Positions 16,101-31,003 of a stretch of DNA of 64,000 bases are shown one piece after another. Source of the DNA: a virus; the IMG/VR virus record IMGVR_UViG_3300045988_151351, positions 128,001 to 192,000 of that record. The stretch is one strand, 5' to 3'. The notes under the pieces were generated by a model that saw only the letters and a list, made by a program, of their open reading frames with translations, was not told the DNA's origin and did not search any database. Each line of letters starts with the position of its first letter. Positions within the stretch are counted from its first letter, which is position 1. The translations under genes and the position numbers were made by a program.

Positions 16101-16101
16101 C

Positions 16102-16553: not shown

Positions 16554-16588
16554 ACAGATACAAGGTAAGGAAATGAGGTATTACACAA

Positions 16589-17022: not shown

Positions 17023-17039
17023 GAAAGGGATAAATAAAA

Positions 17040-17201: not shown

Positions 17202-17269
17202 ATTAGGGCTTGACAAACCGCAATCTTCATGCTATAATTAAGACACAAAGAACAAAGGAGATAACAACA

Positions 17270-17464
17270 ATGACTGACAACTACAACACTTACTACAACA
17301 AGCTTATGGGCATGAAGAAAGCGGACATTATCCGCGAAGGTCAGACTTGGGATATTTGGGCGAACTGCCAGAGCACCGCCGCTTGGCTGATGAAACAGTC
17401 TAAGACTTGGCTGGCTGGTGTCCTTGCTGGTCGGCTGTGCCGCTTGGAAAATCGGGGCTACTAA
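17270..17464 (+). CDS. early small protein, 64 aa
   Basis: Promoter at 17208-17240. Followed by a terminator. Confidence 0.45.
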   Translation: MTDNYNTYYNKLMGMKKADIIREGQTWDIWANCQSTAAWLMKQSKTWLAGVLAGRLCRLENRGY

Positions 17465-17480
17465 ACCCCCGATTTTCCGT
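17441..17480 (+). terminator. rho-independent terminator (AAATCGGGG-loop-CCCCGATTTT)
   Basis: Hairpin plus T-run. Confidence 0.6.
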
Positions 17481-17571
17481 TGCGGCTTTGGACTTCTGAA
17501 ATAAACACTTGACAGCCAGCCATTCATGTGCTATAATAAAGGCACAAAGTTAAGAAGTGAGGTAAAATAAA

Positions 17572-17766
17572 ATGCTGTTCATCATCTCTGCTGTTTACTA
17601 CAATTATAGACCTGACGACAATAACCGCTATCGTTGCGAGACTACAGTTGTAGGTCAAGACAATGCCTATGAACTGGGACAGAAATTTATGGACGCTGAT
17701 AATGTTCTTTCAGTGGATATTATTGACGCTATGACTGGTGAGGTGATTGAAAGCTGGACAGAGTAA
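17572..17766 (+). CDS. early small protein, 64 aa
   Basis: Promoter at 17508-17545; ORF; terminator. Confidence 0.45.
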   Translation: MLFIISAVYYNYRPDDNNRYRCETTVVGQDNAYELGQKFMDADNVLSVDIIDAMTGEVIESWTE

Positions 17767-17776
17767 TAAAATACCA

Positions 17777-17815
17777 ATTCAGCGGAATGAACAAATTCCG
17801 CTGAATTTTTTTATT
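17777..17815 (+). terminator. rho-independent terminator (CAGCGGAATgaacaaATTCCGCTG + T-run)
   Basis: Hairpin plus T7. Confidence 0.75.
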
Positions 17816-17849
17816 TATTTTGTCTATTGACAAATCCAATAGAATGTGA

Positions 17850-18044
17850 TAAAATGGGCGCGCCGGCCACAATCGCCACTGGCCGGCATTTTATTATAAC
17901 ATACCGCCAGCCAATTTGTCAAGGGGAAAATCGCACAAATATTACACAAAAAATTCTCCCGAAATTTGTGCGTTTTGCCAATAGACAAACAGAATAGCAT
18001 AGTGTATAATAAAGATACAAAGTTAAGGAACGAGGTAATTCACA
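17850..18044 (+). promoter_or_regulatory. composite regulatory element E2: GC hairpin GCCGGCC..GGCCGGC, conserved box CATTTTATTATAACATACCGCCAGCCAATTTGTCAAGGGG, then promoter TAGACA-N16-TGTATAAT
   Basis: Conserved with E3 and E7. Confidence 0.5.
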
Positions 18045-18212
18045 ATGACTATGAACGCACTTGCTGAGAAATTGTCCGCATGGCTCGACCGCTATGGCTG
18101 GGATGATGAAAGCCTGAATAATTTTGCCAACATCCATGCGACTTCCTACGAAGAATACAATGCGATTTGGGAAGTTTTGGAAGAACTGAAAAAAATGCGT
18201 GATGGGGATTGA
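18045..18212 (+). CDS. early micro-protein, 55 aa
   Basis: Conserved RBS. Confidence 0.4.
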   Translation: MTMNALAEKLSAWLDRYGWDDESLNNFANIHATSYEEYNAIWEVLEELKKMRDGD

Positions 18213-18269
18213 CAAAGTCCCCATTCCATGCTATAATAAATATACAAATTAAGAAAGGAATTGAATACA

Positions 18270-18488
18270 ATGGATTTCAAGAAAATGAGCGCAGGTGCAG
18301 CATTCGGCAAAATTCTTTACACAGTTGGCAAGTGGTTCGCAACTGCCGCTTTGATCTGGTGGGGCTGGAACATTTTTGCCTGGCACTTTGATCTGCCGCA
18401 GTTCGAGTACATGGAAATCTTTGCCATGCGTATGGCTCTGACCTGTATCATGAAAATTTTCTGGCAGAGAACTGACAAAGGGGATTGA
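18270..18488 (+). CDS. early small membrane protein, about 72 aa
   Basis: Promoter at 18210-18245. Trp-rich TM. Confidence 0.45.
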   Translation: MDFKKMSAGAAFGKILYTVGKWFATAALIWWGWNIFAWHFDLPQFEYMEIFAMRMALTCIMKIFWQRTDKGD

Positions 18489-18545
18489 CAAACAATCCCC
18501 CATGTGCTATAATAAATTCAGAAATTAAGAAAGGAATTGATAATA

Positions 18546-19007
18546 ATGAAAGCAACAGGAATTATCCGCAGAATTGATGAATTGGGGCGCGTAGTTATCC
18601 CCAAGGAAATCCGCCGCACTATCCGAATCCGCGAAGGTGACCCGCTGGAGATTTTCGTTGAAGGTGGCGCAGTCATTTTCAAGAAATACCAGACAATGGG
18701 AAATCTTGAAACTCAGTGTAATGTGCTTTGTGACACATTCCAAAAAATGTCCAGTGCGTGCGCAGTCTTTGATACTGATGGTGAATTGTTCGCGTCAAAT
18801 TCACAGTTCCGCTTTGCCTTTGCCGCCAACATGCCCAAGTTGCCGAAAGATTTAATTGGTTGCCGTGAAATTCTTGAACGCAATCACATGATTTTCATGC
18901 CAATTATCGCTGATGGGGAAATACTGGGAACTCTGGCAGTTGAAACCGATAACCGCGAAATGGTTCAATTTGCGGCAAGAAATTTGGCTGAACAGTCGAA
19001 AAATTAA
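18546..19007 (+). CDS. SpoVT/AbrB-family regulator, about 153 aa: AbrB-N domain plus a C-terminal GAF-like domain
   Basis: RRIDELGRVVIPKEIRRTIRIREGD is the AbrB-N signature. Length and architecture resemble SpoVT. Own promoter at 18484-18520. Confidence 0.6.
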   Translation: MKATGIIRRIDELGRVVIPKEIRRTIRIREGDPLEIFVEGGAVIFKKYQTMGNLETQCNVLCDTFQKMSSACAVFDTDGELFASNSQFRFAFAANMPKLPKDLIGCREILERNHMIFMPIIADGEILGTLAVETDNREMVQFAARNLAEQSKN

Positions 19008-19069
19008 GTCTTGACAAACCAGCCGGTCTATGATACAATAATGATACAAAAGAAAGCGAGGTACTTACA

Positions 19070-19228
19070 ATGAAAATGGTTATCTTCACTCTGGTAATTG
19101 CTATCCTTGTCATTGACTGGCTGGTTGCTATTTTGGAATTTGCTACCGGTCACAAGAAAAGCATTGTTGATGTTATCATCCGTTCATTCCTTCTTTTTGC
19201 CGTGCCTTTTATCGTCCAGTGGTTCTAA
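19070..19228 (+). CDS. early micro-membrane protein, 52 aa
   Basis: Promoter at 19010-19045; hydrophobic. Confidence 0.4.
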   Translation: MKMVIFTLVIAILVIDWLVAILEFATGHKKSIVDVIIRSFLLFAVPFIVQWF

Positions 19229-19374
19229 CTACTGGGCGATAAAATTCACTATTGACAAAATAATAAAAATGTGATATAATAATTATACAATAAAAAAAGG
19301 AATTGATAACATGAATTTTCTATTCAATTTGCCTATTGACATTTTTGATTGCGTATGCTATAATTAAATGATAA

Positions 19375-19568
19375 GAAAATTGCAGCCGCCCGCCGACGTT
19401 TGCCAGCCCCGGTATTTCCATTATAACACCGGCCAGCCATTTTGTCAAGCGAAAAATTGAACAAAAATGAAAAAATATTTGATCCCGAATTTGTGTATTC
19501 TACCAATAGACAAAAAGAAAAACAGGGTGTATAATAAGGGTACAAAGTTAAGGAATGAGGTACTTGAA
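19375..19568 (+). promoter_or_regulatory. composite regulatory element E3 (GC-rich segment, box CCATTATAACACCGGCCAGCCATTTTGTCAAGCG, promoter TAGACA..TGTATAAT)
   Basis: Conserved with E2 and E7. Confidence 0.5.
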
Positions 19569-19748
19569 ATGAGTAAGCGTGAAATGGTCCGCATGATTAA
19601 CGACCGCACTGGTGAAATCGTTGACAAGTTTTTTGATGATTCCGCCGATGCTGATGATCTTGAATTTCTTCTGGACATGATGCAAGTCCATTATCAGCGG
19701 TGGAGCGATGGCGAAATTCTTTATGAAGAAAATGATACAAGGGCTTGA
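19569..19748 (+). CDS. early acidic micro-protein, 59 aa
   Basis: RBS AAGGAATGAGG. Confidence 0.4.
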   Translation: MSKREMVRMINDRTGEIVDKFFDDSADADDLEFLLDMMQVHYQRWSDGEILYEENDTRA

Positions 19749-19806
19749 CAAACAAGCCCCCTATGTGATATAATCAATACAGAAATTAAGGAATGAGGTA
19801 ACTACA

Positions 19807-20019
19807 ATGAAGAACTTCACTATTGACGCTTACATCAAACAGCAGTTGATTTTTGCTGAGACTATGCCTACCGATGCCGAACTGTTCGAGCACAACGCTC
19901 TTGGCGCTATCGAGTGGGATGCTTATGTAAATGGCACTAACCCCGAACTTGAGCGCCGTTGGACTGAAAACTACAAACCCGCCTTTGAAAAGATTATTCG
20001 GGGGGTTTTCCATGGATGA
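19807..20019 (+). CDS. early small protein, 70 aa
   Basis: Promoter at 19745-19780. Confidence 0.45.
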   Translation: MKNFTIDAYIKQQLIFAETMPTDAELFEHNALGAIEWDAYVNGTNPELERRWTENYKPAFEKIIRGVFHG

Positions 20020-20212
20020 TCTGAAAAAAGGGACTTGTAAGGATTTTACAGCGTGGGACTTAAACTGTCCCCGCTATGTAAAACCTGACAACAAACTGAG
20101 AAAAAAATTCGTGCGGAAATATCGCAGAAATTCAAAACTGGCTCTTGACAAACAGGTAAAAACGTGCTATAATCAAGATACAAAAACGGAAAGGAATGAA
20201 AACAATGATTAA
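20014..20212 (+). CDS. basic K/R-rich micro-protein, about 66 aa; its coding sequence overlaps the next promoter
   Basis: ATGGATGA overlap with the preceding stop. Confidence 0.25.
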
Positions 20213-20675
20213 AGAAATCGTATTCGACATGGACGGAACTATCGCTGACCTGTATGGCGTTGAGAACTGGCTGGAAATGCTGAGAACATCCGACCCGACC
20301 CCGTATGAAATCGCAGAACCCCTGATTGACATGGCAGAACTTGCCAATCTGCTTTCCCAGTGTCGTGTTATCGGGATTGAAATTTCCGTGGTAACTTGGC
20401 TGAGCAAGGTTTCCACTCCCGACTATGATAAAGCGGTGAGAAAAGCGAAAAAAGAATGGCTGAACAACCATGATTTTCCTTTTGACCATTTCCACGGAGT
20501 CAAGTATGGAACACCGAAACATCAGGTAGTCAAGCAGGAACTTCCAAAAGATGGAACAGCACTGATTTTCGATGATGACGCGCGAGTGCGGAACGCTTGG
20601 ACGCTTGGCGAAGCAATCGACCCCACAAAAGAAAATATCATTGAAATCCTGCGGAATATTTTGGAAGCGCGCTAA
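20205..20675 (+). CDS. HAD-superfamily 5'(3')-deoxyribonucleotidase-like hydrolase, about 156 aa
   Basis: Motif I FDMDGTIADL (DxDGT). Size and layout match the phage NT5C-type nucleotidase family. Confidence 0.55.
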   Translation: MIKEIVFDMDGTIADLYGVENWLEMLRTSDPTPYEIAEPLIDMAELANLLSQCRVIGIEISVVTWLSKVSTPDYDKAVRKAKKEWLNNHDFPFDHFHGVKYGTPKHQVVKQELPKDGTALIFDDDARVRNAWTLGEAIDPTKENIIEILRNILEAR

Positions 20676-20788
20676 GCGCTTCCAAAGAAAGGAAATAATA
20701 AAATGAATGACGAACAGCTTGACATTTTGCTTGAAGAAGCAACAGACATTAAAATTTTGATTGCCTTGGGCTGAAAGGATGGGTAAAA

Positions 20789-21079
20789 ATGGAAACAAAG
20801 TTTATTTGGGTAGTTAATTTTGGCGATAATGATTTTGATGATTTGAATTGCGCATTTGACAATTTCAAAACTGCAAAAGAAGCAGTACAGACAATTTTTG
20901 GCAAGGTTTCCGCAGTAAACCCTGCTTGGCAGAATTTTAAGCTGGAAGATGAAGACACTGAAAATGAATGGGCAGTCTATGCATTTGACTATGTTGATGA
21001 AGACGCCCACCTTTTGGTAAATCCTCACATTGACATTGTCGTAGCTCCAATACCTTACAATTCTCTTCCTATTGATTGA
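20789..21079 (+). CDS. early small protein, 96 aa
   Basis: Intact ORF followed by a terminator. Confidence 0.45.
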   Translation: METKFIWVVNFGDNDFDDLNCAFDNFKTAKEAVQTIFGKVSAVNPAWQNFKLEDEDTENEWAVYAFDYVDEDAHLLVNPHIDIVVAPIPYNSLPID

Positions 21080-21120
21080 AAATTTTGGGAATCCAGATTT
21101 TGGATTCCCAATTTTTTTTC
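21079..21120 (+). terminator. rho-independent terminator (GGGAATCCAGATTTTGGATTCCC + T8)
   Basis: Perfect hairpin plus T-run. Confidence 0.8.
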
Positions 21121-21139
21121 GATTCATTTTTTGGAAATA

Positions 21140-21595
21140 GTTGTAAAATGACAGCCGCGCGGTCACGATTGTGTGGCCGCGCCATTTTGTCAAGAGGGAA
21201 TACTCACTAATTTTTTGAGCGGATTTTTGTGCATCTTGCCAATAGACAGAAATCCTGAAATGTGGTATACTCTATAATGTCAAGGGGAGAGAATGAAAAA
21301 AACTTTATCTCCCTCGTGGGAGATTAGGTGTCAGTCAGTCCCACCCACTCGAAAAAAAATGTAAAAAACCCCTTGACAAACCCCACGGAATGTGGTACAA
21401 TAAAGACGTCAAGAGGGAACAGCGATTAAAAAGTGCTTGGTATCATTAGCCGGGCTACACAACTTCCGCGGTTCGTGTGTAAAAAAAATAAAATTCCCTC
21501 TTGACAAACAGCTCCTGATGTGTTATAATCAATACAGAAATTAAGGATAGGGGAAACGATGGTAAGCCCCATCCAAAAGAAAGGAATTACCAAAA
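21140..21595 (+). promoter_or_regulatory. composite element E4 plus a cluster of three tandem promoters, each followed by a short hairpin transcript whose 3' arm overlaps the next -35
   Basis: Promoters at about 21247-21275, 21372-21400 and 21483-21512. Hairpins GTCAAGGGGAG../..CCCCTTGAC and CAAGAGGGAA../..TTCCCTCTTG. Confidence 0.5.
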
Positions 21596-22252
21596 ATGCC
21601 CAAAAATATCTACTGTACGCTGGACACTGAGACAGTCGGTGGCAGTTCTAACCCGACCGGAATGTATAACGCGGGTGCTGTCATTCACGACAAGGATGGT
21701 AACATTTTGGCAACAACTTCCATCCTTATCATGGAACATTATGACAGCATCAACAAAGACGATTATGCTAAGAAGCATTTTCCGATCTATGAAGCTCGTT
21801 TGACAAGTGGCACAATTTCCGCGGTAGCTACCGAAGCCGAAGCTGTATCCATCGTGCGCAACCTCTGTCGGTTCTATGGTGTAAAGTATGTTATGGCATA
21901 CAATAGCTGTTTCGATTTCATTAAGACACCTTTTGCCGCGCTTCTAGATGAATTTGAGTTTATCGACCTTTATTTGATGGCTTTACAGACCATCACGCAC
22001 CAGAAAGGCTTTGACAAATTCTGCCATGAAAATAATTTCGTTGCGCGAAGTGGCAGGTCTTGCGCGACGGGTGTTGAAGCGGTCTATGCCTACATCACCA
22101 GAAACCCCGACTTTGAAGAAGAACACACCGCACTTTCTGACGCACTGAATGAAATGGCAATTTTTGTTAAGTGCTATTCGCTCCATAAGCGCTTTACCAA
22201 AAACTGCCACCAGTGGAATTGCCACGAAAATAAAATGTTCCCCAAGTGGTAA
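21596..22252 (+). CDS. DEDDh 3'-5' exonuclease (DnaQ/RNase T-like), 218 aa
   Basis: Exo I CTLDTETVG, Exo II YNSCFDF and Exo III HTALSDALNEMAIF motifs. Confidence 0.6.
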   Translation: MPKNIYCTLDTETVGGSSNPTGMYNAGAVIHDKDGNILATTSILIMEHYDSINKDDYAKKHFPIYEARLTSGTISAVATEAEAVSIVRNLCRFYGVKYVMAYNSCFDFIKTPFAALLDEFEFIDLYLMALQTITHQKGFDKFCHENNFVARSGRSCATGVEAVYAYITRNPDFEEEHTALSDALNEMAIFVKCYSLHKRFTKNCHQWNCHENKMFPKW

Positions 22253-22320
22253 AAACCACTTGACAAACCCAATCAAATGTGATATAATCAATACAGAAAT
22301 TAAGAAAGGAATTGAATACC

Positions 22321-22824
22321 ATGACTAGAATTAACTTTACCGATGCCGCTAACCTCGCCGAAGCTGTTTGCCGCGTGAAGGAACTCTTTGGCACTAACCC
22401 CTTTACTTCCAAGGAATACAACACTAACCGCCCCAAGGGTATGGCACTGCTCAGCACTCTTGAAAATCATCACATTGTCACCATCGTCAAGACTGAGACT
22501 TTTGAAAAAGAAGTTAATTCTTGCTATGGCGCGGAATACGTTCTGAATGCTAACAATGAAAGTATCATGAAGCTGGACGATTTCAAGGCTCTGCCGCAGT
22601 CTGTTCAGGAAATGATTACCAAGGCGGCAGGTGGGATCCACATCGAACACCGCGACGTGGAAACAATTACCTGTAAGCGGTATTATTACCAGTTCAATCC
22701 GGAAGCCTATGAAAAGTATCTGAGCAACCGCGTGACTGAGTGGAAAATTGCCCTCTGTAAGAAACAGGAAAAGCTGGAACAGCTTTCCAAGGAAATCGCG
22801 GCTCTGAAAAAAATTGTCGGCTGA
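22321..22824 (+). CDS. early protein with C-terminal coiled coil, about 167 aa
   Basis: Promoter at 22258-22295. Confidence 0.45.
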   Translation: MTRINFTDAANLAEAVCRVKELFGTNPFTSKEYNTNRPKGMALLSTLENHHIVTIVKTETFEKEVNSCYGAEYVLNANNESIMKLDDFKALPQSVQEMITKAAGGIHIEHRDVETITCKRYYYQFNPEAYEKYLSNRVTEWKIALCKKQEKLEQLSKEIAALKKIVG

Positions 22825-22834
22825 GAAAATTAGT

Positions 22835-23008
22835 GCTTGACAATCGCCGCAAAGTGTGATACAATGTAAGTGTTCCAAGGGGAGATGAACTTCTCCCCAA
22901 GGACACGAAAAAAAATTCAAATTAGGTATTGACAAGTCGAAAGATTTGTGATACAATATATTCATCAAGTGAAGGACACACTTAAAAAACCAGAAAGGAA
23001 TTGATACT
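22835..23008 (+). promoter_or_regulatory. tandem promoter pair with an intervening perfect hairpin CCAAGGGGAGATGAACTTCTCCCCAAGG, and a leader shared with the paralogous cassette at 27960-28059
   Basis: TTGACAATCG..TGTGATACAAT and TTGACAAGTCG..TGTGATACAAT. Leader GTGAAGGACACACTTAAAAAACCAGAAAGGAATTGATACTATG is identical at both cassettes. Confidence 0.55.
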
Positions 23009-23371
23009 ATGGCTACTAAGATGACTAAGAAGGATTGCTTCACCGCTCTGCTCCAGATGGACGAAGTCCAGTCCAACCAGACTCTCGTGGATTTCATCAA
23101 CCACGAACTCGAACTGCTGGCGAAGAAGAACAGCGCCGAAAAGAAGCCGACCGCGACCCAGCTCGCCAATGATGGCTTCAAGTCCGCGATTCTCGCTCAC
23201 ATGAGCATGACCCCTGACCAGCTTTTTACCATCACGGAACTGATTAAGTCTGTGCCGGAGATTGCCGACCTGACCAACCAGCGTGTCAGCGCGATTGTCG
23301 GTCAGATGGTAAAGGCTGGAAGCCTTGTCCGTGTTGACGACAAGAGAAAGGCTTTCTTCAAGGTGGCGTGA
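23009..23371 (+). CDS. family-X protein, 120 aa; paralog of 28060..28440 and 44401..44808
   Basis: Shared blocks include HELELL.KKN....KKPTATQ.ANDGFK and LFTITELIK.VPEIADLTNQRVSAIV.QMV..G.L.RV. Confidence 0.5.
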   Translation: MATKMTKKDCFTALLQMDEVQSNQTLVDFINHELELLAKKNSAEKKPTATQLANDGFKSAILAHMSMTPDQLFTITELIKSVPEIADLTNQRVSAIVGQMVKAGSLVRVDDKRKAFFKVA

Positions 23372-23414
23372 CCGGATGGGGGCTTTTGCCCCCACTTCCG
23401 AAAGGAGGTAAAAA

Positions 23415-23774
23415 ATGACAGTCGAAGAACTCGCCCAGCGGTTGAACATTTCAGTCGATGAAGCGCGACAAGTCCAAGAGGATGACAAACGCATTGACCA
23501 CGGTGAAAAGTTATTTGAATTGCCGCCGGAGCTTGAAGCAGGAGCGAAAAAAGCAAGACAGACCGGAACGCGCAAGGTCACAGAGGTTAAACGAGAGCGC
23601 AAACCCGACGAGGACAAGCGCGAACTCATCCAGTATTTGGAAGGCAAGCTCGAAGATGCCCACCATTACGACATGGATTTGGATAACATTACCATTACCA
23701 ATCCAGAGCGAGAAATGGAATTTACTTACAATGGAAAAAAGTACCGGCTGACGTTGGCTTGCCCCAGAAAATGA
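23415..23774 (+). CDS. family-Y protein, 119 aa; paralog of 28493..28897
   Basis: Shared D.GEK..F.L.PE.E...KK....GTRKV and C-terminal Y.LTL...RK. Confidence 0.45.
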   Translation: MTVEELAQRLNISVDEARQVQEDDKRIDHGEKLFELPPELEAGAKKARQTGTRKVTEVKRERKPDEDKRELIQYLEGKLEDAHHYDMDLDNITITNPEREMEFTYNGKKYRLTLACPRK

Positions 23775-23780
23775 CAAAAG

Positions 23781-23818
23781 TTCCTCCCAGAAAATGGGAG
23801 GAACTTTTTTACCCAAAT
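23781..23818 (+). terminator. rho-independent terminator (TTCCTCCCAGAAAATGGGAGGAA + T-run)
   Basis: Hairpin plus T6. Confidence 0.75.
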
Positions 23819-23824
23819 TATTTG

Positions 23825-23991
23825 GAAATAGATGGAAATTCGGCCGCGCGACCACAATCCAGTGGGCGCGTCATTTTTGTCAAGAATAACATTCAACAAA
23901 TTTTCTGCACATTTTTTGTGTATTCTGACTGTTGACTTTTCTCCCGAAAAGCTTTATACTATTGGTACAAGGCTAAGGGAGGAAACACCTA
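23825..23991 (+). promoter_or_regulatory. composite regulatory element E5 (GC hairpin, TTTTTGTCAAGAAT box, promoter TTGACTTTTCTCCCGAAAAGCTTTATACT)
   Basis: Same architecture as E1 to E7. Confidence 0.45.
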
Positions 23992-24165
23992 ATGAATATT
24001 GAAGTAAATACCGAGCATCTAACTGAGTGCATTGAAAGTTGGGTCGAGACATTTGATGATTGTGCTTGTTGTCCTCTGATGTTCGACTGCCAAGAGGATG
24101 AAGATATCCGAGGCATTGACTGTATTGAATGCAGTGAAAAAATTATTGATTGGTTAAAGGCTTGA
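23992..24165 (+). CDS. Cys-rich micro-protein, 57 aa (CACC..C..C..C)
   Basis: RBS GGGAGGAAAC. Confidence 0.4.
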   Translation: MNIEVNTEHLTECIESWVETFDDCACCPLMFDCQEDEDIRGIDCIECSEKIIDWLKA

Positions 24166-24219
24166 CAAGATAACCCTATTGTGATACAATAGGATTATCA
24201 AAAGAAAGGAATTGATACA

Positions 24220-24354
24220 ATGGATTTAGCTATTATTATTTTAGGTGCTCTCTATCTCTGCGGGGTTAAAGTTGGCACAGCACTTGCAATCTGTGCTATT
24301 ATTGAAGGTCTTTTCATTATTATCAGTGCAATTATCAGAAAATTAAATGAATAA
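24220..24354 (+). CDS. micro-membrane protein, 44 aa
   Basis: Promoter at 24160-24197; hydrophobic. Confidence 0.4.
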   Translation: MDLAIIILGALYLCGVKVGTALAICAIIEGLFIIISAIIRKLNE

Positions 24355-24416
24355 GGGCTTGACAAACAAGCCCTATTGTGCTATAATTGATTTATCAAAG
24401 GAAAGGAATTGATACC

Positions 24417-24749
24417 ATGAATAAAAAAAATAATGAGAATTTAAAAAGAGTATTAAATCTCTTGGACGACCTTATTTCTGATGAAGTAGAAGAACGAACC
24501 GCAGAACTTGAAAAGGAAGTTTCTCATTTTAAATGTTCAAGTGCCCGATATAGGGATATAATTAAATTCCTTGTTAGAGAATCTAAACTTGATATTCCTG
24601 CTAAAACTGCCGAAGCCTTGGAAGAATTTAAGAATGCAAAAGAGTGTGATAGTAGAAATGGTTATTCTACTTATACAAGCTATACCAATCGAAAAGGTTA
24701 TGTTTATGAACAATATGAAATGATTAAAAAAATTTGTAATAGGGCTTGA
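24417..24749 (+). CDS. early small protein, about 110 aa
   Basis: Promoter at 24358-24395. Confidence 0.45.
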   Translation: MNKKNNENLKRVLNLLDDLISDEVEERTAELEKEVSHFKCSSARYRDIIKFLVRESKLDIPAKTAEALEEFKNAKECDSRNGYSTYTSYTNRKGYVYEQYEMIKKICNRA

Positions 24750-24802
24750 CAAACAAGCCCTATTGTGCTATAATAAAGACACAAAGAGAGGAGATGTAAT
24801 AA

Positions 24803-25009
24803 ATGAAACACAATAAATGGTTTGTGGCTTGTCTTGGTTGTCTGATGGTTAGCGTAGTTCTCGGCGGTTTGGGAATGATGTTGGGCGTTCTTGCCTGTGT
24901 GGCTTGTGCGGGCGGATGTTTCGTTAAGTGGCTTTTCGAAGAAGATAAATACCAGCGCGCAGAACACCAAAAATATTTGGAAAGTTTGAAAAAAGGGCTT
25001 GACAAATAA
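24803..25009 (+). CDS. small membrane protein, 68 aa
   Basis: Promoter at 24746-24783. Confidence 0.45.
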   Translation: MKHNKWFVACLGCLMVSVVLGGLGMMLGVLACVACAGGCFVKWLFEEDKYQRAEHQKYLESLKKGLDK

Positions 25010-25059
25010 CTACTTTGATGTTATAATAAAGATACAATAAAGGAAAGGAATTGATACCA

Positions 25060-25239
25060 TGAAACATTTCCATTGTCCGGTAAATGGTTGGGATTGCCCC
25101 TATTTCAAAAATGAAACGATAATCAATGGTCAGAAAGAAACCTGCATTTGTAGTCTGGAAAATCCGATGGATGACTGCGATGATTTTTACAGCATGTGGG
25201 GTGATTGCGAACCTGATGATTATACAGATGATAATTAAG
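25060..25239 (+). CDS. Cys-rich acidic micro-protein, 59 aa
   Basis: Promoter at 24996-25033. Confidence 0.4.
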
Positions 25240-25271
25240 GGGAAATTTCCCCTAGGAAAGGAATTGATACC

Positions 25272-25559
25272 ATGTTAGATAAAAATACGGAAGAAATGCT
25301 GAAAGGCATGACGGACAGTGAAATCGCTACATTGATTGGTCTTGCTTATAGAGAAAAGCAAAACAGAGATGAAGCAAAAAAAACAAAATACATGAACGCA
25401 ATTAACAAGGCTATTCAGGATTATCTGGATAATGTTGGAGATTTAACATTCCATGTTGAGTATGAAGATGAAGATGGTCAGGACGCGGAAACTGACATCA
25501 CCGTAGATAATACAAATCCGCCTGCTGGTGGTAATGGAGTTATTTATATTAAGGAGTGA
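25272..25559 (+). CDS. early small protein, 95 aa
   Basis: RBS only, no own promoter; co-transcribed. Confidence 0.45.
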   Translation: MLDKNTEEMLKGMTDSEIATLIGLAYREKQNRDEAKKTKYMNAINKAIQDYLDNVGDLTFHVEYEDEDGQDAETDITVDNTNPPAGGNGVIYIKE

Positions 25560-25636
25560 AAAAATAGCACAAGGGGCTTGACAAAGTAAGCCTCTTGTGC
25601 TATAATTGATTTATCAAAAGAAAGGAATTGATAAAA

Positions 25637-25876
25637 ATGACTCTCGGTATGATTAAAAATGTAATCGGCATTGTAAAAGGTTCGTTAATGTTTTATGATG
25701 GAAATGGTGTTGAAGTAATAAATGAAAATACCTGTGGTCGCTATCTCAAAGATCGCAAAGGCCGCATGACCTTGAATGGAGACCTTCTGGACACAAGTGA
25801 AGAATGGATGCTGGGATTACCTGTAACTGGTTTGAAAGCCAAAAATAATACCCTTATCATTTACGTTGATGGCTGA
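25637..25876 (+). CDS. early small protein, about 79 aa
   Basis: Promoter at 25576-25613. Followed by terminator 25877-25912. Confidence 0.45.
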   Translation: MTLGMIKNVIGIVKGSLMFYDGNGVEVINENTCGRYLKDRKGRMTLNGDLLDTSEEWMLGLPVTGLKAKNNTLIIYVDG

Positions 25877-25912
25877 AAATAAAATCCAGAGGGCTATGCT
25901 CTCTGGATTTTT
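25877..25912 (+). terminator. rho-independent terminator (AAATCCAGAG..CTCTGGATTTTTT)
   Basis: Hairpin plus T-run. Confidence 0.75.
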
Positions 25913-25914
25913 TA

Positions 25915-26088
25915 AAATCTATTAATTTTTCAGTCTCGCGCCCACGGTCCAAGCGCGAGGATTTTTAGATTTTAAACACATTACACAATTTTTTCGGGCA
26001 AAATTTGTGTAAAATAACAGTTGACATTTTTCCCGATACCTGTTATACTATAATTGTTCCAAGAGAGAACCAGTAAGGAGAATGAACA
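25915..26088 (+). promoter_or_regulatory. composite regulatory element E6 (hairpin CTCGCGC..GCGCGAG, promoter TTGACATTTTTCCCGATACCTGTTATACT)
   Basis: Same architecture. Confidence 0.45.
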
Positions 26089-26304
26089 ATGAAAAGATAT
26101 AGAATTACAGATGATGTTGTCGCTGATTTGTTGAACTTCTATTGCGAGGGTAAGCCTGCCGTTTGGAATTGGTTTTTTGGATGGCGCGGCGGACATTGGG
26201 ATACAAAAGGGAATCTAGTTTATTGCGATTACATTGTTTCTGATAAAATTCTGAATCAAGCAATCACATTAGCAAAAAGATTTTCCGATCGGCTTGACAA
26301 ATAA
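26089..26304 (+). CDS. early small protein, 71 aa
   Basis: RBS AAGGAGAATG. Confidence 0.45.
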   Translation: MKRYRITDDVVADLLNFYCEGKPAVWNWFFGWRGGHWDTKGNLVYCDYIVSDKILNQAITLAKRFSDRLDK

Positions 26305-26354
26305 ATAAAAATATGTTATAATAATTATACAAATTAAGAAAGGAATTGATAACA

Positions 26355-26540
26355 ATGACAATGTATAAACGGGAAGTAAAATATAAGTGGCTTTGGTGGA
26401 ATGGACGTGGTAGTTATGTTCTTTCTGATGAAACTGAATGGATGAGTGAAGAAGAAGCAAAAGAAAAGAACATCAAAACCTATGATACTGGTTTACAATG
26501 TTGTAGAGAATATGAAAGATTTATTCCGATAGAAAATTAA
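26355..26540 (+). CDS. early small protein, about 61 aa
   Basis: Promoter at 26293-26330. Confidence 0.4.
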   Translation: MTMYKREVKYKWLWWNGRGSYVLSDETEWMSEEEAKEKNIKTYDTGLQCCREYERFIPIEN

Positions 26541-26559
26541 AAAGAAAGGAATTGATACC

Positions 26560-26970
26560 ATGACTGAAATTAAGACCTATAAATGTGATTTCTGCGGGCA
26601 GGTGTTCGACGATGAAGCAGAGTGTATTCGTCATGAATGGAAATGCAGATATGAGGATCTGCGTAGAACAGAAAATTGCGAACCGCTGAAGCTGTTCGAC
26701 CTTGAAGACAAGGAAATTGAGGGATTTAATTATCCTAAATGTGATGAAATTGGTGCGATGGAAATTCATTCCTACGCTTGGGCACAATTCATCAATGATT
26801 ATTTTGATGAAATGGGTTATGAAGTTCCCATTAGAATCGTAGACGGAGAGGTTGAACGCTATGGTCTGTGGTATTATGACCCTGAATATCGCTATGGCGA
26901 GTGGCGATCTTATGAAGAAGTGCTTGAAGATATTCAGAAAATTGGAAAGAAATTTAATCAAGGGGCTTGA
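26560..26970 (+). CDS. early protein with an N-terminal C2H2/zinc-ribbon-like motif, 136 aa
   Basis: CDFCGQVFDDEAECIRHEWKC. Confidence 0.45.
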   Translation: MTEIKTYKCDFCGQVFDDEAECIRHEWKCRYEDLRRTENCEPLKLFDLEDKEIEGFNYPKCDEIGAMEIHSYAWAQFINDYFDEMGYEVPIRIVDGEVERYGLWYYDPEYRYGEWRSYEEVLEDIQKIGKKFNQGA

Positions 26971-27024
26971 CAAGCCCCTTGACCTGTGATATAATTGATT
27001 TATCAAAAGAAAGGAATTGATACA

Positions 27025-27300
27025 ATGAATAAACAGGTTATTTTCATGGACAACGAGGGAACTGTTCAGGCAGGCATCTGGAATCAGGACAGGGATGAAA
27101 TTATTTGCGGTTGTTGTGGCGCAACAATCGAATCGGGCGATTTTGTTCTGCTTCACATTTATGACGAATGGCTGAATATCACCGATGAAATCTGCGGAGA
27201 TGATGGAGATATTCTTCATGAGATTGAAGAAAAGGTTGACCGTCTGACCACTTCTGAAATTGAAGCTATTCTTGATGGAAAGAAGGAATTTAACGTATGA
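27025..27300 (+). CDS. early small protein, about 91 aa, with CGCCG..C..C
   Basis: Promoter at 26967-27005. Confidence 0.4.
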   Translation: MNKQVIFMDNEGTVQAGIWNQDRDEIICGCCGATIESGDFVLLHIYDEWLNITDEICGDDGDILHEIEEKVDRLTTSEIEAILDGKKEFNV

Positions 27301-27605
27301 AATTTCTTATTAAGGTTATCGCTAAGTGGTTCAAAGACAGAAATTGCGCGTTTGCTATTTATGGCGCGGATGGCTCATGCATTGAAAGTGCAAATACTGT
27401 ACCGGAAAAGAATTTTTTCCCACCGAAGACAAATCAAATACGGAAAAATGGTGATGATTGGTATTCATTTCCAATCAATGCCAACGGTGAATATTGCGGT
27501 TGTGTCTGCTGGCTTGAAGATACCAGCGAAGAAGCATGGATAGAATTTTACGATGTAATTAACATCTGCCAAATTCTGGAAACCGCGTGCGAAGTTGAGG
27601 AATAA
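27297..27605 (+). CDS. early small protein, 102 aa
   Basis: ATGA overlap with the preceding gene. Terminator at 27590-27625. Confidence 0.45.
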   Translation: MKFLIKVIAKWFKDRNCAFAIYGADGSCIESANTVPEKNFFPPKTNQIRKNGDDWYSFPINANGEYCGCVCWLEDTSEEAWIEFYDVINICQILETACEVEE

Positions 27606-27639
27606 ATTTCCTCAACTTTTTTCGCCTTTTTAATTGGGA

Positions 27640-28059
27640 ATTTTTGGGCGCGGCGCCCACGTATGTAAGGCGCCGAATTTCCATTATACCACCCCGCCAG
27701 CAATTTGTCAAGAGAAAAGTTATACAAAATAATCTTTTTATTTTATCCCGTTTTCGTCATTTTGCCAATAGACTTTTCAAGGGGTATCTGCTATAATACA
27801 TAATGTCAGGAGGGAATGGAGAGTTCCCAAGCGGTTAAAAAAACTTTTGGGAATTGAAAATTTCCTCTTGACAAAGCCCACACGATGTGGTATAATAAGG
27901 GTGTCAATGAGGGGCGGCTAAGTCCTGCAGGCTGAAAAAGATTTTAGAATTTTTGGGAAAAAATTCGCCAAACCTCTTGACAAGCCCCACAAAGTGTGGT
28001 ATAATCTAAATGTAATTAAGTGAAGGACACACTTAAAAAACCAGAAAGGAATTGATACT
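27640..28059 (+). promoter_or_regulatory. composite element E7 plus a triple tandem promoter-hairpin cluster, paralogous to 21140-21595 and 22835-23008
   Basis: Box CCATTATACCACCCCGCCAGCAATTTGTCAAGAG. Promoters at about 27775-27805, 27880-27910 and 27975-28005. Confidence 0.5.
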
Positions 28060-28440
28060 ATGGCTAAGACTACTTCCAAGCTGACCAAGCGCGACTACTT
28101 CAACATTCTCCGTGAAGCGTATCCGCAGACCGCGGACAACTATGACGCAGTTATCGGTTTCATCGACCATGAGCTGGAACTGCTTTCCAAGAAGAACGCG
28201 GCTGACAAGAAGCCGACTGCCACGCAGGTGGCGAACGACGGTTTCAAGACCTCGATTAAGGCGGTGATGTCCGCAGAACCGACCCGTCTGTTCACTATCA
28301 CGGAACTGATTAAGACTGTTCCGGAGATTGCCGACCTGACTAACCAGCGTGTTTCTGCTATCGTCCGGCAGATGGTAACTGATGGCACGCTCGACCGCGT
28401 TGAGGAAAAGCGGAAAGCCTATTTCCGCATTCACCAGTAA
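28060..28440 (+). CDS. family-X protein, 126 aa; paralog of 23009..23371
   Basis: See 23009. Confidence 0.5.
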   Translation: MAKTTSKLTKRDYFNILREAYPQTADNYDAVIGFIDHELELLSKKNAADKKPTATQVANDGFKTSIKAVMSAEPTRLFTITELIKTVPEIADLTNQRVSAIVRQMVTDGTLDRVEEKRKAYFRIHQ

Positions 28441-28492
28441 TTGCCAATCGGGGCGGAGCAATCCGCCCCACCCAGAAGAAAGGTGGAATTAA

Positions 28493-28897
28493 ATGGCATT
28501 AAAGGAAAAAGACAAGCAAGCGTGGATTGACAAAAATATGAAACTCATGGGCTGGACGCAGGAAGAAGCGGAAAGTGTGTGGGAAGCCGACCGCGCTATC
28601 GACAAAGGCGAACGTGTTGATTTTGACTTGTCACCAGAACAGGAAAAAGAAGCCAAAAAATATATGAACGCGGGAACGCGCAAAGTGCCGACAAATTACA
28701 AATTTGACCAGCGCAAGCGTAAAGAAAACCCGACCAAAGCCGGAATTATCGCAGAATTAGCAACTTTTTTGGCTGAAAACAGCGAAAATGCGTGCGAAAA
28801 CGTGGAAATTACAAACAAAGAGCGCATGATTGCGTTCAAAGTTGGTGAAAATTGCTACGAATTGACGCTCACGCAGAAAAGAAAGCCAAAAAGTTAA
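28493..28897 (+). CDS. family-Y protein, 134 aa; paralog of 23415..23774
   Basis: See 23415. Confidence 0.45.
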   Translation: MALKEKDKQAWIDKNMKLMGWTQEEAESVWEADRAIDKGERVDFDLSPEQEKEAKKYMNAGTRKVPTNYKFDQRKRKENPTKAGIIAELATFLAENSENACENVEITNKERMIAFKVGENCYELTLTQKRKPKS

Positions 28898-28928
28898 GAA
28901 AAAGGGCGAGAAATCGCCCTTTTTCTAA
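28898..28928 (+). terminator. rho-independent terminator (AAAAAGGGCGAGAAATCGCCCTTTTT)
   Basis: Hairpin plus T-run. Confidence 0.75.
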
Positions 28929-29035
28929 GCAAAAACTGCGGAAAAGTTAGGCTTGACAACGACTTTTTTGTATGGTATAATGTCTATACAGTTAAGGGAG
29001 CGGACAACCCAACCAACCGCAGAAAGGTAAAGCGT

Positions 29036-29683
29036 ATGTTTGAATATTTCTCCAAGGAAATCGACCAGATCGAAAGCGAAGATTTGCGAATGTTCGTTAA
29101 GTTCTATCTTGACGAAAAAGTTCCGTCCTATTTCTGGAAAATCGGCGCTTCAAGTTCTGGAAAATTTCATCCTGTTTTTTCTCAGGGTGAAGGCGGTCTA
29201 GTTCGTCATACCAAAGCCGTTTGTGCGTTCTGTGAAGAACTTTTGAGAATGTCTCAATGGGCTTACATGAAAGACGAATACAAAGACCTCGCGCGTGTCG
29301 CTTGTATTTGCCACGATACCGCAAAATACGGTTTAGCAGATTTTGACAAGGGAGAATATCCCAACCATGCCGCGAATGCCGCAAAATTGGTAGATTCTGC
29401 TTGGCGCGAATACTTTGATGAACCTGCTCCGTTTTTGCTCACGCAAGCCATTAAGTCCCACATGGGGCAATGGAGCACCGACCGCGAAGACAGACCTTTT
29501 ACAAATATTGACAGGCTTGTCCATCTTGCGGATTACATCGCTTCCAGAAACTTCATCGACATTCCTGAAATTACCAGCGACTACAATTCCACATTTTCTA
29601 ACGAAGATGACGCCGAACCGGAAGATATTGACAGCGATGAAGGCTTCGACCCTTACTCCGGCTGTTTCACCTATGACTGTTAA
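29036..29683 (+). CDS. HD-domain metal-dependent phosphohydrolase, 215 aa
   Basis: H..H...CHDTAKYG...HLADYIAS (HD motif). Promoter at 28953-28990. Confidence 0.55.
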   Translation: MFEYFSKEIDQIESEDLRMFVKFYLDEKVPSYFWKIGASSSGKFHPVFSQGEGGLVRHTKAVCAFCEELLRMSQWAYMKDEYKDLARVACICHDTAKYGLADFDKGEYPNHAANAAKLVDSAWREYFDEPAPFLLTQAIKSHMGQWSTDREDRPFTNIDRLVHLADYIASRNFIDIPEITSDYNSTFSNEDDAEPEDIDSDEGFDPYSGCFTYDC

Positions 29684-29715
29684 AAAAGAGGGCATTAGCC
29701 CTCTTTTTTTTGTTC
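29683..29715 (+). terminator. rho-independent terminator (AAAAAAGAGGGCATTAGCCCTCTTTTTTTT)
   Basis: Hairpin plus T8. Confidence 0.8.
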
Positions 29716-30086
29716 ATTTTGCCTATTGACAAATGCGGCCTGGGGTGGTATAATATCTATAGGGGATAGTTCATCGGGGCGCTGACATAGTCAAGCCCCG
29801 AATTCCCGATCTTTTATCCCATATGGAAAATTTTTGCTCAATCCAGCGGCCTCCATATGCGACCTGGTTCTCCCGAAAGTGATGCCCCCGCAGGGCGCCG
29901 ATCGGTACTATATCATATGCCCGGCATTTGACAATATTAAAAAAATTTGTTATAATATTAAAAAAAAGCATTTTTAAAGCGCGGCCCATTTAGATAATCC
30001 GCCCATTTGACATTTATAAAAAAAAATGATATAATATATTTAGAAAGTGAGAGATCACTTTACTATTAGATAAAGAGGTAACATAT
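29715..30086 (+). promoter_or_regulatory. multi-promoter region marking the transition between the two promoter families: TTGACAAATGCGGCCTGGGGTGGTATAAT, then two AT-rich TTGACA..TATAAT promoters
   Basis: Direct reading. GC-rich structured segment at 29760-29900. Confidence 0.4.
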
Positions 30087-30464
30087 ATGTTTACTAAGGA
30101 AGATATTATTGCTCGTCTTGCTAAGGGTGAGGACGCTCAGTCGATCGCAGATGAAATGGCTAAGACTCTGAATGAGGCAGTCCAGGAGACCAAGGATCAG
30201 GACAATAAGACTAATCTGCGCGCAGCTATTAATGAGAAGTCAACTGATCTTATGAATCTGCTGCTGGAGTATTTTGATGTCGATGAAACTTGTACTACCG
30301 ATGAAATGGCCAGCCTGACTGATCAGCTCCTTGATACTATTGAAGCCGTTGTGCCTCTGATTGAGGTCATTGAGAAGTATGATGATAAGAGTGCTTCTAC
30401 GCGCACAACTGCTAAGACTTCGGATAAGGTAATTTCGGACTTTTTGAAGGTATTCGTAGATTAA
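30087..30464 (+). CDS. acidic helical protein, 125 aa
   Basis: Intact ORF. Terminator at 30536-30575. Confidence 0.45.
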   Translation: MFTKEDIIARLAKGEDAQSIADEMAKTLNEAVQETKDQDNKTNLRAAINEKSTDLMNLLLEYFDVDETCTTDEMASLTDQLLDTIEAVVPLIEVIEKYDDKSASTRTTAKTSDKVISDFLKVFVD

Positions 30465-30535
30465 AACGGACACTTCTTCGGGTGGGACAATTTTCATCCT
30501 AAGAATTGGAAATCTGAATAGAAATCGAGATATTA

Positions 30536-30575
30536 AAGAGTGAAACGTTGAGTTTCACTCTTTTTTTTATTTTTA
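30536..30575 (+). terminator. rho-independent terminator (AAAGAGTGAAACGTTGAGTTTCACTCTTTTTTTT)
   Basis: Hairpin plus T8. Confidence 0.8.
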
Positions 30576-30629
30576 TTACGGTGACGATGAGGATGGATTG
30601 TTGAGATAGTTGTATAGGACCGATCGGCA

Positions 30630-30700
30630 CGACACTTCCACAATTTTCCACAATTTCCCACAATTTTCTATAGCTATCTACAATTTTCTACAATTCTTCA
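30630..30700. repeat. at least 6 iteron-like repeats of (C/T)CACAATTTTC
   Basis: TTCCACAATTTTCCACAATTTCCCACAATTTTCTATAGCTATCTACAATTTTCTACAATTCTTC. Confidence 0.7.
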
Positions 30701-30967
30701 TTATTTATTATAATTATTATAACCCACCATAATAATAACTTTTACCTTTATCTTTCTCCTACTAATCCAAATTACCTCAGACTTATAATCCAATAGAGAA
30801 GAAATTGCCGAATGCCCCTCTCAGCGCAATTAACTCTTATGAAAAATTTCTTAACAAAATCTTGACAAAAGAAAAAATTTATTATATAATATAATTACAA
30901 AGTGAGGAACAACCTCCATCCTTTCAATTTTATTCTTTCTACTACCTTACTTTGTATTACAATTAAA

Positions 30968-31003
30968 TAAAAAAAATAACCGCTATTTCAGCGGTTATTT
31001 TTT
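30968..31003. terminator. bidirectional terminator (A8-AACCGCTATTTCAGCGGTT-T10)
   Basis: Hairpin flanked by A-run and T-run. Confidence 0.75.

Follow-up and report, generated by a model that had tools for sequence, protein, structure and literature searches.

Tandem arrays of co-oriented, near-consensus promoters about 100 base pairs (bp) apart, with transcripts from the upstream promoters reading through the downstream ones, are known from the A1/A2/A3 promoters of phage T7, from the early or host-takeover regions of SPO1 and SP82 and from the P1-P2 promoters of rrn operons. In the tandem early promoters of lytic phages, structured RNA elements stand in the leaders and immediate-early genes lie behind them. 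The DNA described here, a window of 64,000 nucleotides (nt) corresponding to positions 128,001 to 192,000 of the IMG/VR virus record IMGVR_UViG_3300045988_151351, carries promoter stacks of this kind in which the RNA of the spacer between two promoters is predicted to fold into a closed panhandle, its first nucleotides pairing with the -35 element of the next promoter and the adjoining flank. With their 5' ends placed as predicted, the panhandles would resemble the 5'-terminal stabilizers of bacterial messenger RNA (mRNA), where a helix or purine run occupies the extreme 5' end (E. coli ompA and papA, B. subtilis aprE, ermC, the SP82 polypurine sequence, the STAB-SD of cryIIIA), and the SP82 stabilizer likewise derives from phage early RNA of a Gram-positive host. 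Such 5' stem-loops, polypurine sequences and STAB-SD elements stabilize mRNA (PMC3997798, citing Emory 1992, Hambraeus 2002, Hue 1995, Agaisse & Lereclus 1996). Paired first nucleotides protect against 5'-end-dependent decay, and B. subtilis RppH requires at least two unpaired 5' nucleotides (PMC3997798). A further parallel is the hbs mRNA of B. subtilis, in which the extreme 5' end and a remote stretch of that mRNA are base-paired; this pairing between the 5' and 3' untranslated regions (UTRs) controls ribonuclease access (PMC5737220). Finally, inverted repeats involving promoter hexamers are found in single-stranded-DNA or hairpin promoters, namely plasmid Frpo/ssi and the early promoters of phage N4.

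The window departs from each of these systems. Unlike in the 5' stabilizers, the partner strand lies 60-280 nt downstream and consists of the next promoter's -35 and flank, and the elements are stacked serially. The T7 processing hairpin is placed downstream of all three promoters and is free of promoter bases. The hbs mRNA is monocistronic and its pairing partner belongs to the 3' UTR, whereas the partner described here is part of a 5' leader and overlaps a promoter. The DNA stem of Frpo and N4 holds the -35 together with the -10, or a polymerase recognition hairpin, whereas the repeat described here holds the -35 only, and the evidence points to an inverted repeat that acts in RNA and not, as in those promoters, in DNA. 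A single-stranded DNA promoter of the Frpo type was rejected, as only TTGAC lies within the repeat and both the spacer and the -10 lie outside. A literature search found no description of an initial transcribed sequence that complements the -35 and flank of the next promoter, and we know of no tandem early promoters of lytic phages for which such complementarity has been described. The novelty lies in promoter-stack spacers that are each predicted to form a closed panhandle, 5' stabilizers and tandem early promoters being already known.

Promoter stacks and their predicted panhandle units

Eight near-consensus promoters of the sigma-A type, predicted by sequence scoring and all on the plus strand, are grouped in three clusters. 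Cluster A (21243-21529) comprises P1 (21243-21271; TAGACA-17-TGgTATACT, 10/12 consensus positions, of the promoter class 'TTTGTGCAnnTTGCCAATAGACA'), P2 (21373-21401; TTGACA-17-TGgTACAAT, 11/12) and P3 (21501-21529; 12/12), the last followed by a leader at 21536-21595. Cluster B (22837-22957) has two promoters, both 11/12, at 22837-22865 and 22929-22957, the second being nearest to a gene here called X. Cluster C (27769-28005) again has three, P1 at 27769-27797 (TAGACT-17-TATAAT, 10/12) and the perfect P2 (27868-27896) and P3 (27977-28005; both 12/12), with P3 nearest to a second copy, X'. A TG precedes the -10 in all eight, each carries an A/T-rich UP-like tract, and within a stack the promoters are 92-130 bp apart. 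An earlier sequence-only reading had placed eight promoters here, alternating with hairpins in tandem and positioned ahead of an exonuclease-like gene and two X/Y cassettes; our scan recovered all eight at the same places (10-12/12), and both the anatomy and the position ahead of these genes were confirmed.

No plus-strand intrinsic terminator or attenuator (a GC-rich hairpin with a U-tract) was found inside the clusters. Past the arms the sequence continues with AAAnCC..., and the A-runs themselves are enclosed by the loop. Since nothing terminates transcription between the promoters, RNA from an upstream promoter is expected to read through the downstream ones. With eight promoters of 10-12/12, each with its TG, and no internal terminator, the clusters have the composition of tandem host-type early promoter clusters, their activity being predicted. 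Antisense promoters at the inverted TTGACA copies were ruled out, there being no -10 at the proper spacing. The spacers of the downstream stack promoters (21379-21395, 27874-27890 and 27983-27999) are themselves small palindromes that make use of the extended -10 (CCACnnnnnGTGG; CCACAnnnTGTGG) and would appear as mini-hairpins in the folded read-through RNA.

Clusters A and C hold four inter-promoter units between them. In each, the predicted +1 G opens a purine-rich GUCA(A/G)G(A/G)GG; at the DNA level the units begin with GTCAAG, GTCAGG or GTCAAT, 7-8 nt past the -10 hexamer, and this 5' stretch is complementary to (Y)CCUCUUGAC, that is, to the flank and first five bases of the next -35. In unit A1 (21279-21377, plus strand, as are all units) GTCAAGGGG (21279-21287) pairs with CCCCTTGAC (21369-21377), so that the first five -35 bases of P2 lie within its 3' arm; between the two arms are a hairpin and a tract that is A-rich and UP-element-like. 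Unit A2 (21408-21505) is closed by a 12-bp helix of GTCAAGAGGGAA (21408-21419) and TTCCCTCTTGAC (21494-21505), with a folding z-score of -4.5. Unit C1 (27805-27872; z-score -6.9) has the arms GTCAGGAGGGAAT and ATTTCCTCTTGAC with two G:U pairs; its lower helix measures 13 bp and its upper one 14 bp, with a 4x4 internal loop between them. In unit C2 (27903-27981) GTCAA(T)GAGG faces CCTCTTGAC with one bulge, the RNA GUCAA(U)GAGG pairing with CCUCUUGAC. RNAfold closed all four units into panhandles (z-scores -2.2 to -6.9), which persisted as independent domains when the whole leaders of 276 nt and 337 nt were folded. The predicted 5' end thereby lies flush in a helix of 9-13 bp. Within the window, just four promoters have a CCTC or CCCC flank before the -35, namely those preceded by a GTCAAG-type start; the other ~30 promoters mostly have GGGC-type flanks.

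The sequence-only reading had proposed that every promoter is followed by a stem-loop whose closing arm overlaps the next -35. This holds for the four units in A and C, where the quoted arms are correct, and fails in cluster B. Unit B1 (22872-22906, plus strand) is a local 5'-terminal hairpin, GUUCCAAGGGGAG...CUCCCCAAGGAC, which starts at the predicted +1, is followed by an A-run and ends 23 nt short of the next TTGACA, without overlap; moreover, no further -35 that could be shared comes after the last promoter of a cluster. The suggestion that folding of the transcript might occlude or expose the downstream -35 found no support. There is no terminator or attenuator in the clusters, and because sigma recognizes the -35 as duplex DNA, a fold internal to the RNA leaves its target unchanged. 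The two micro-ORFs (micro open reading frames) that had been pointed out do exist, with an ATG ending on the predicted +1 G. Their conservation was not borne out: of the 32 representative units (defined below) only 14 contain an ATG, and the peptides of 5 to 43 amino acids have only MSRG or MSGG in common, which the RNA arm imposes.

A gathering-score scan of the window against Rfam 15 returned nothing in the clusters, and scans of 18 related loci returned nothing in the units. In a relaxed E-value scan of 17500-30500, a mir-276 match on C1 was spurious (26 bits against a gathering score of 62), and the other five low-scoring matches all lay outside the units. A miniature inverted-repeat transposable element or other transposon was likewise discarded: despite a 10-bp inverted repeat, the flanking sequences are dissimilar, no target-site duplication is visible and the interiors are unrelated.

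Recurrence and covariation in related phages

Homologs of the exonuclease-like gene and of X were used to fetch 51 related loci from IMG/VR, from which 32 representative units of less than 85% identity were taken. In unconstrained minimum-free-energy folds, nt 1-6 paired in register with CTTGAC of the next -35 in 27 of the 32. The G of the helix follows the -10 hexamer after a spacer of 6 nt in 18 units and of 7 nt in 14, and a T stands at -1 in about 85-90% of database matches, matched on both strands. T(-1)/G(+1) is a canonical pyrimidine/purine start, from which the first nucleotide of the RNA is predicted to lie flush in the helix. All units have a purine-rich 5' arm similar to a Shine-Dalgarno sequence; just ahead of the 3' arm runs an A-tract/T-tract/A-tract stretch resembling a full UP element, and the loop varies from about 20 to >250 nt. 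Among 703 non-redundant consecutive promoter pairs, the association between a GTCARGRRG start and a C[CT][TC]C flank at the next -35 had an odds ratio of 18-43 (p ~1e-12); this p-value is descriptive only because the loci are phylogenetically non-independent. The promoter-panhandle pattern exceeds chance.

The stacks comprise two to four near-consensus promoters, with four in front of X in locus L002. In the loci selected through X, nearly all panhandle stacks have an X homolog behind them, and within one phage this applies to several paralogs of X. In a scan without such selection, 47 loci showed the full context, and 22 of these had an X homolog within 1.5 kilobases (kb) downstream. The link between panhandle stacks and X is thus strong and non-exclusive. 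The predicted design recurs in a large family of TAG-recoded gut phages.

Whether the complementarity resides in RNA or in DNA is best judged from the variation of the two arms. For position 7 of the helix, four IMG/VR-wide scans were made, one per arm combination, and only matches in a promoter-unit-promoter context were kept. The A:U combination (GTCAAGAGG...CCTCTTGACA) was represented by 46 sequences in 28 clusters and the G:C combination (GTCAAGGGG...CCCCTTGACA) by 40 sequences in 32 clusters. Mixed arms were rare: GGGG...CCTC, a G:U pair, occurred in 3 sequences (3 clusters) and AGG...CCCC in 6 sequences (4 clusters), all of the latter being GUCAAG(A)GGG(G) with CCCC, that is, helices with a bulged A. 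Position 7 therefore covaries, with 28 A:U and 32 G:C clusters against 7 mixed ones (Fisher p = 2e-11, calculated on clusters). The asymmetry between G:U and A:C at this position was set aside as uninformative, the apparent A:C cases being the bulged-A helices. Comparison of orthologous units in L002 and L004-L006 revealed a compensatory change from G:C to A:U at position 11, and position 5 is A:U in 22 of 31 units and G:U in 9. One- and two-nucleotide bulges also occur, as in C2 and in GUCAG(GU)GAGG of L012 and L046; such bulges point to RNA, since RNA helices accept them and protein-binding sites would not. In combination, the covariation of the arms, the tolerance of G:U pairs and bulges and the variable loop length favour a plus-strand RNA helix, with selection for pairing at the RNA level. 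Two independent protein sites or a DNA cruciform would not predict this pattern.

A related arrangement was found where no promoter follows. An 88-nt 5'-UTR element (GUCAAGAGGAUAAAACAGAAUGCGGACAGCGCCGCCCAGCUUACGAGCUUCAAGCGGUAAGCGCGCUGCGAAAGGUAACCUCUUGAC; L072 8723-8809, L058 3713-3800 and ~25 further IMG/VR contigs) lies between a -10-like box and a ribosome binding site, ahead of two different genes and with no promoter downstream. It carries the closing helix GUCAAGAGG/CCUCUUGAC of the units, flush at the predicted start and at an equal distance from the -10, and no Rfam match to it was found. This suggests that a paired GUCAAGAGG 5' end may be the selected feature, and that the complementary strand was recruited as a -35 when promoters became stacked.

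Unit number and content vary among phages with 97%-identical proteins, a unit with its promoter being present or absent and one unit having been swapped. In the 97%-identical relative L001, unit A1 and P2 are precisely missing, leaving a clean difference of 129 bp, while A2 is conserved and the ortholog of C1 retains its closing helix. The slot of C2 holds a different RNA of ~190 nt that begins with ACAAAAG, and there the flank of the next -35 reads AGGTA and not CCTC; with C2 replaced and the flank altered, the two arms have changed together. The segments compared were 21200-21600 of the window with L001 5730-6005, and 27740-28065 with L001 10680-11108. These differences suggest frequent unequal recombination between stacked promoters. 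A blastn-short search with the interiors of the four window units against 364 fetched loci found no homolog outside near-identical genomes. Some larger units of other phages (L046, L050) have an internal covarying motif in common. The stacks of relatives also contain an element resembling a non-coding RNA (ncRNA), ~200 nt long with its own consensus promoter, which is absent from the window. It is marked by the motifs CCCAYGAGAGYGAKGUAAGAC and GACCGCAAGGUGUUCCUGUUUGCGGUAUACAAAUGUGAACCAG and is located at L001 10840-11010, L008 1060-1260, L012 9140-9340, L016 2240-2440, L019 4330-4530, L021 5440-5640 and L025 4330-4520; scanning of L008, L012, L016, L019, L021 and L025 gave no gathering-score Rfam match to it.

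Proposed role and competing explanations

We propose, with moderate confidence, that the panhandle is a 5'-terminal protective and insulating fold of the read-through leaders that stacked promoters produce. The stacks would serve genes in need of very high immediate-early expression, namely the multi-copy X and, in the window, also the DEDDh exonuclease-like gene. The helix would work in the plus-strand RNA, where RppH and 5'-end-dependent RNases (J1, Y, E) should act poorly on a triphosphate 5' end that is base-paired; pairing that resists RppH would resist RNase J1 and other 5'-end-dependent decay too. The closed spacer would in addition sequester two stretches, the A/U-rich copy of the UP element and the purine run that resembles a Shine-Dalgarno sequence, and so hold both apart from the ribosome binding site downstream. 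Because the -35 and the UP element are fixed by promoter function, the initial transcribed sequence would be the adapting side, matched to the next -35, and this adaptation would explain the double duty of the -35. The fold would leave access to the -35 in DNA unregulated. At the gene-proximal promoter, and at the first promoter of cluster B, a predicted local 5' hairpin takes the place of the panhandle. Structured 5' ends outside the panhandles, namely the hairpin of B1, the covarying hairpin of the proximal X leaders and the closing helix of the 88-nt element, are in keeping with the proposal.

Several observations weigh against this proposal. The +1 position is predicted from promoter geometry only, and with a 7-nt spacer transcription could start at the A two bases upstream, leaving a 2-nt overhang. 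The 3' side of the helix is largely fixed by the -35 itself, and the invariably purine-rich 5' arm suggests a constraint beyond pairing, such as promoter escape or ribosome binding. In the 31-row alignment of the arms alone, covariation beyond position 7 is weak, 21-34 of 500 shuffles attaining the observed values, as most columns are invariant. At the proximal promoter of L002, GUCAGGAGGG is kept but locally paired, with ~5 nt unpaired. The arms could travel together merely because cassettes duplicate as units, and the strong link with X would also fit an autoregulatory DNA operator.

Among the alternatives, cleavage by an RNase III-type enzyme at the closing helices, which would trim the leaders to a uniform X mRNA and free stable hairpin RNAs, appears rather unlikely. 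Phage early polycistronic RNAs are classically processed by RNase III, as at the R-sites of T7, and early RNA of SP82 is reportedly processed as well, in work attributed to Panganiban and Whiteley in 1983. Unit C1, with its 13-bp and 14-bp helices around a 4x4 internal loop, is similar to a T7 site, and no other 3'-end signal is present in the clusters. Yet C1 is the only unit that qualifies: the usual closing helix has 9 bp and opens onto a multiloop, as against the roughly two helical turns of a processing site. Processing, moreover, has no need of the flush pairing of the first nucleotide, which is the most constant feature.

It is also unlikely that the panhandle is an active coupling device, either through a helix that closes at the next promoter or through released hairpins that titrate a host factor. 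In a first version, the helix would close as polymerase crosses the next promoter and would strip sigma, suppress pausing or clear the promoter; in a second, hairpins would be released and accumulate as abundant early RNAs, the -35 duplex being reproduced as RNA in their closing helix. Either would amount to a new double use of promoter sequence, as DNA signal and as RNA structure.

Taken by itself, a co-transcriptional device, in which closure of the helix during passage through the next spacer and -10 reduces backtracking, pausing and interference, seems improbable. The geometry would suit it, as the 3' arm ends at -31 and would leave the RNA exit channel with polymerase near the extended -10. 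Extended -10 elements are strong sigma-dependent pause signals (lambda PR' and promoter-like elements), and the downstream stack promoters are perfect extended -10 elements; many single promoters of the region also lie within local palindromes. However, such a device does not require the 5' arm to start at +1, a short local hairpin would form faster, the loop ranges from 20 to >250 nt, and the 88-nt element has the closing helix without any downstream promoter.

An equally improbable view is that the units are autonomous small RNA genes, giving abundant early hairpin RNAs that act, for instance, as decoys for host factors. Each unit does have a consensus promoter and a stable closed fold, and in relatives the same slots hold the conserved ~200-nt ncRNA-like element, and some larger units (L046, L050) share the internal covarying motif. 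Still, the interiors of the window units lack homologs beyond near-identical genomes, which argues against sequence-specific small RNAs; neither a terminator or other 3'-end signal nor an Rfam match is present, and units are gained and lost between 97%-identical phages.

That the repeat is a DNA-level signal we regard as very improbable. In such a scheme CCTCTTGAC and its inverted copy at +1 would be protein sites, for example for autorepression by X, or would form hairpins or cruciforms. The tie to X genes, seen in 22 of the 47 loci found without selection for X, and the predicted winged-helix DNA-binding fold of X speak for this, as does the YCCYCTTGACA flavour that recurs at minus-strand promoters of an upstream module. 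But the two copies in a unit covary, although independent sites would have no need to; a bulge in the 5' copy would put a protein site out of register; the G:U at position 5, present in 29% of units, would be a C:A mismatch in DNA; and a distance of 60-280 bp between the copies exceeds what a cruciform or a single dimeric operator could span.

Least probable of all is the absence of any function, with the inverted repeat a by-product of cassette duplication, through inverted or tandem duplication of -35 regions and unequal crossing-over: cassettes are indeed gained, lost and replaced between near-identical phages, and nearby minus-strand promoters have a -35 flank whose reverse complement is similar to the 5' arm, but the helix is kept among phages whose X proteins are only 38-60% identical and whose interiors are beyond alignment, its covariation is position-specific, and it is anchored flush at the predicted +1.

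Genes, leaders and modules around the stacks

Behind cluster A lies a gene (21596-22252, plus strand) that is DEDDh exonuclease-like by its LDTET, NSCFD and HTALSD motifs, recognized by eye; it matches phrog_20187, a PHROG without assigned function, and its match to an NCBIfam 3'-5' exonuclease is weak. An upstream open reading frame of 23 codons (MVSPIQKKGITKNAQKYLLYAGH; 21560-21631) begins within the leader hairpin GGAUAGGGG...CCCCAUCC and overlaps the start of this gene at 21596. Cluster B precedes X (23009-23371) and Y (23415-23774), and cluster C the second cassette (28060-28897) with X' (28060-28440) and Y' (28493-28897), all on the plus strand. X has >3800 homologs, a few of which are labelled "HxlR family" or "predicted transcriptional regulator" by the Joint Genome Institute. 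In its AlphaFold model (predicted local distance difference test score, pLDDT, 86.5) the C-terminal part forms a winged helix, for which Foldseek returned weak MarR/ArsR/MecI-like matches (E ~5e-3), and X is accordingly predicted by modelling to be a winged-helix DNA binder. The model of Y (pLDDT 69) was too poor for a structure search, and sequence matches to Y were sub-threshold only. A sequence search of the PDB gave no match for X and one weak match for Y (E = 0.088), and scans against Pfam, PHROG and NCBIfam returned nothing informative on the identity of X and Y.

The leaders of X have a hairpin of their own. In the window, AAGUG-AAGGACA-CACUU (22967-22983, plus strand, with a second copy at 28021-28037) presents the loop AAGGAAAA, and the conserved AAAAAACCAGAAAGGAAUUGAUACUAUG comes directly behind it. 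In other phages, the proximal leaders of X (L008, L012, L013, L021, L025, L039, L050 and L110) likewise show a hairpin of 4-5 bp with a conserved, Shine-Dalgarno-like loop AAGGA(A/C)A and then an invariant AAAAACCAGAAAGGAAUUGAUACUAUG. The stem covaries, with 0 of 500 shuffles matching the observed score and 4 of 5 pairs changed on both sides; the alignment was built by hand after MAFFT and RNAalifold had misaligned the short hairpin, so that this count leans toward structure. The hairpin may act on X mRNA as a translational operator or stabilize it.

The stacks lie in an early-type region of the plus strand (16000-31000) with ~38 near-perfect TTGACA-17-TGnTATAAT promoters, about one per small gene; a promoter scan counted 96 promoter-like sites against 52 +/- 7 in shuffles. 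An 'operon-start' module of ~200 bp recurs at 17800-18010, 19310-19535, 21090-21271 and 27600-27797, with weaker copies at 23800-23960, 25900-26050 and 29640-29755, and is also present in relatives and in phage phAss-1. It consists, in order, of the terminator of the previous gene, a GC-rich hairpin, CATTTTGTCAAG and a promoter of the class cccgaaATTTGTGCAtTTTGCCAATAGACA-17-TATAAT. The GC-rich, terminator-like hairpin stands at 21157-21182 (plus strand), just before cluster A, and its counterpart for cluster C at ~27640-27680; into the latter a perfect-consensus minus-strand promoter (27683-27711) is directed. Three module copies have such a perfect minus-strand promoter firing back into the hairpin (17922, 19448, 27711), and in two a perfect plus-strand promoter (17827, 19336) faces it, which places convergent consensus promoters ~95 bp apart over a bidirectional-terminator-like hairpin. 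Sense and antisense hairpin RNAs of 40-55 nt are predicted from these convergent promoters.

In six -35 hexamers (16525, 18209, 18485, 19745, 24746 and 26967), the TGA within TTGACA is the stop codon of the upstream gene, as for the open reading frames ending at 16528, 18212, 18488, 19748, 24749 and 26970. Many of these -35 boxes lie within local palindromes with compensatory variation, as in GGGCTTGACAAACAAGCCC (19745, 24359, 24746), GGGGATTGACAAAGTCCCC (18209) and CAAGGGGCTTGACAAGCCCCTTGA (26967).

The window stems from a large phage-like genome with 25 transfer RNA (tRNA) genes at 48.6-58.7 kb (48611-58727). The array includes a suppressor tRNA with the amber anticodon CTA (58653-58727), which is consistent with TAG recoding (code 15). 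ARAGORN also reported a tRNA-like gene with the four-base anticodon 'gtag' (50465-50536), and a RAGATH-33 RNA lies at 55754-55866. Among GenBank phages no close relative of the window was found, the matches being promoter-sized only (repeats of Staphylococcus Herelleviridae, and phAss-1). The sole informative nucleotide match within the region of the clusters was to phage phAss-1 (OQ749652), which has the same module. NCBI places phAss-1 in the "Caudoviricetes code 15 clade", and its authors predicted a Clostridia host (PMC10607447); their genome paper makes no mention of promoters or hairpins (PMC10607447). A scan of 596 gigabases of bacterial genomes for the pattern gave a total of matches close to chance expectation, and the promoter-unit-promoter context was present in only ~17 contigs of metagenome-assembled genomes (MAGs), mostly from Clostridia, Oscillospiraceae and Lachnospiraceae bins; matches in Accumulibacter belonged to an unrelated multicopy element. 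The interior of unit C2 matches L221 6588-6637 at 100% (CAAFXG010000343.1, a 65.6-kb contig of the Lachnospiraceae MAG HGM12091); a near-identical phage contig was thus sorted into a Lachnospiraceae bin. This binning of phage contigs is a weak hint of a host in the Clostridia/Lachnospiraceae range.

By itself the finding opens no long-standing question. Its sequence signature may be of use for locating early regions and X-type regulator genes in metagenomic phages, and the promoter with its leader may serve as a portable part to be tried in expression systems of Bacillota. The predicted design is kept over hundreds of contigs of uncultured, TAG-recoded phages. If the proposed role is correct, this would be a clear case of dual selection on one DNA segment, as promoter hexamer and as arm of an RNA helix, and the stacks would show a compact design rule by which phages of Gram-positive gut bacteria attain extreme early expression.

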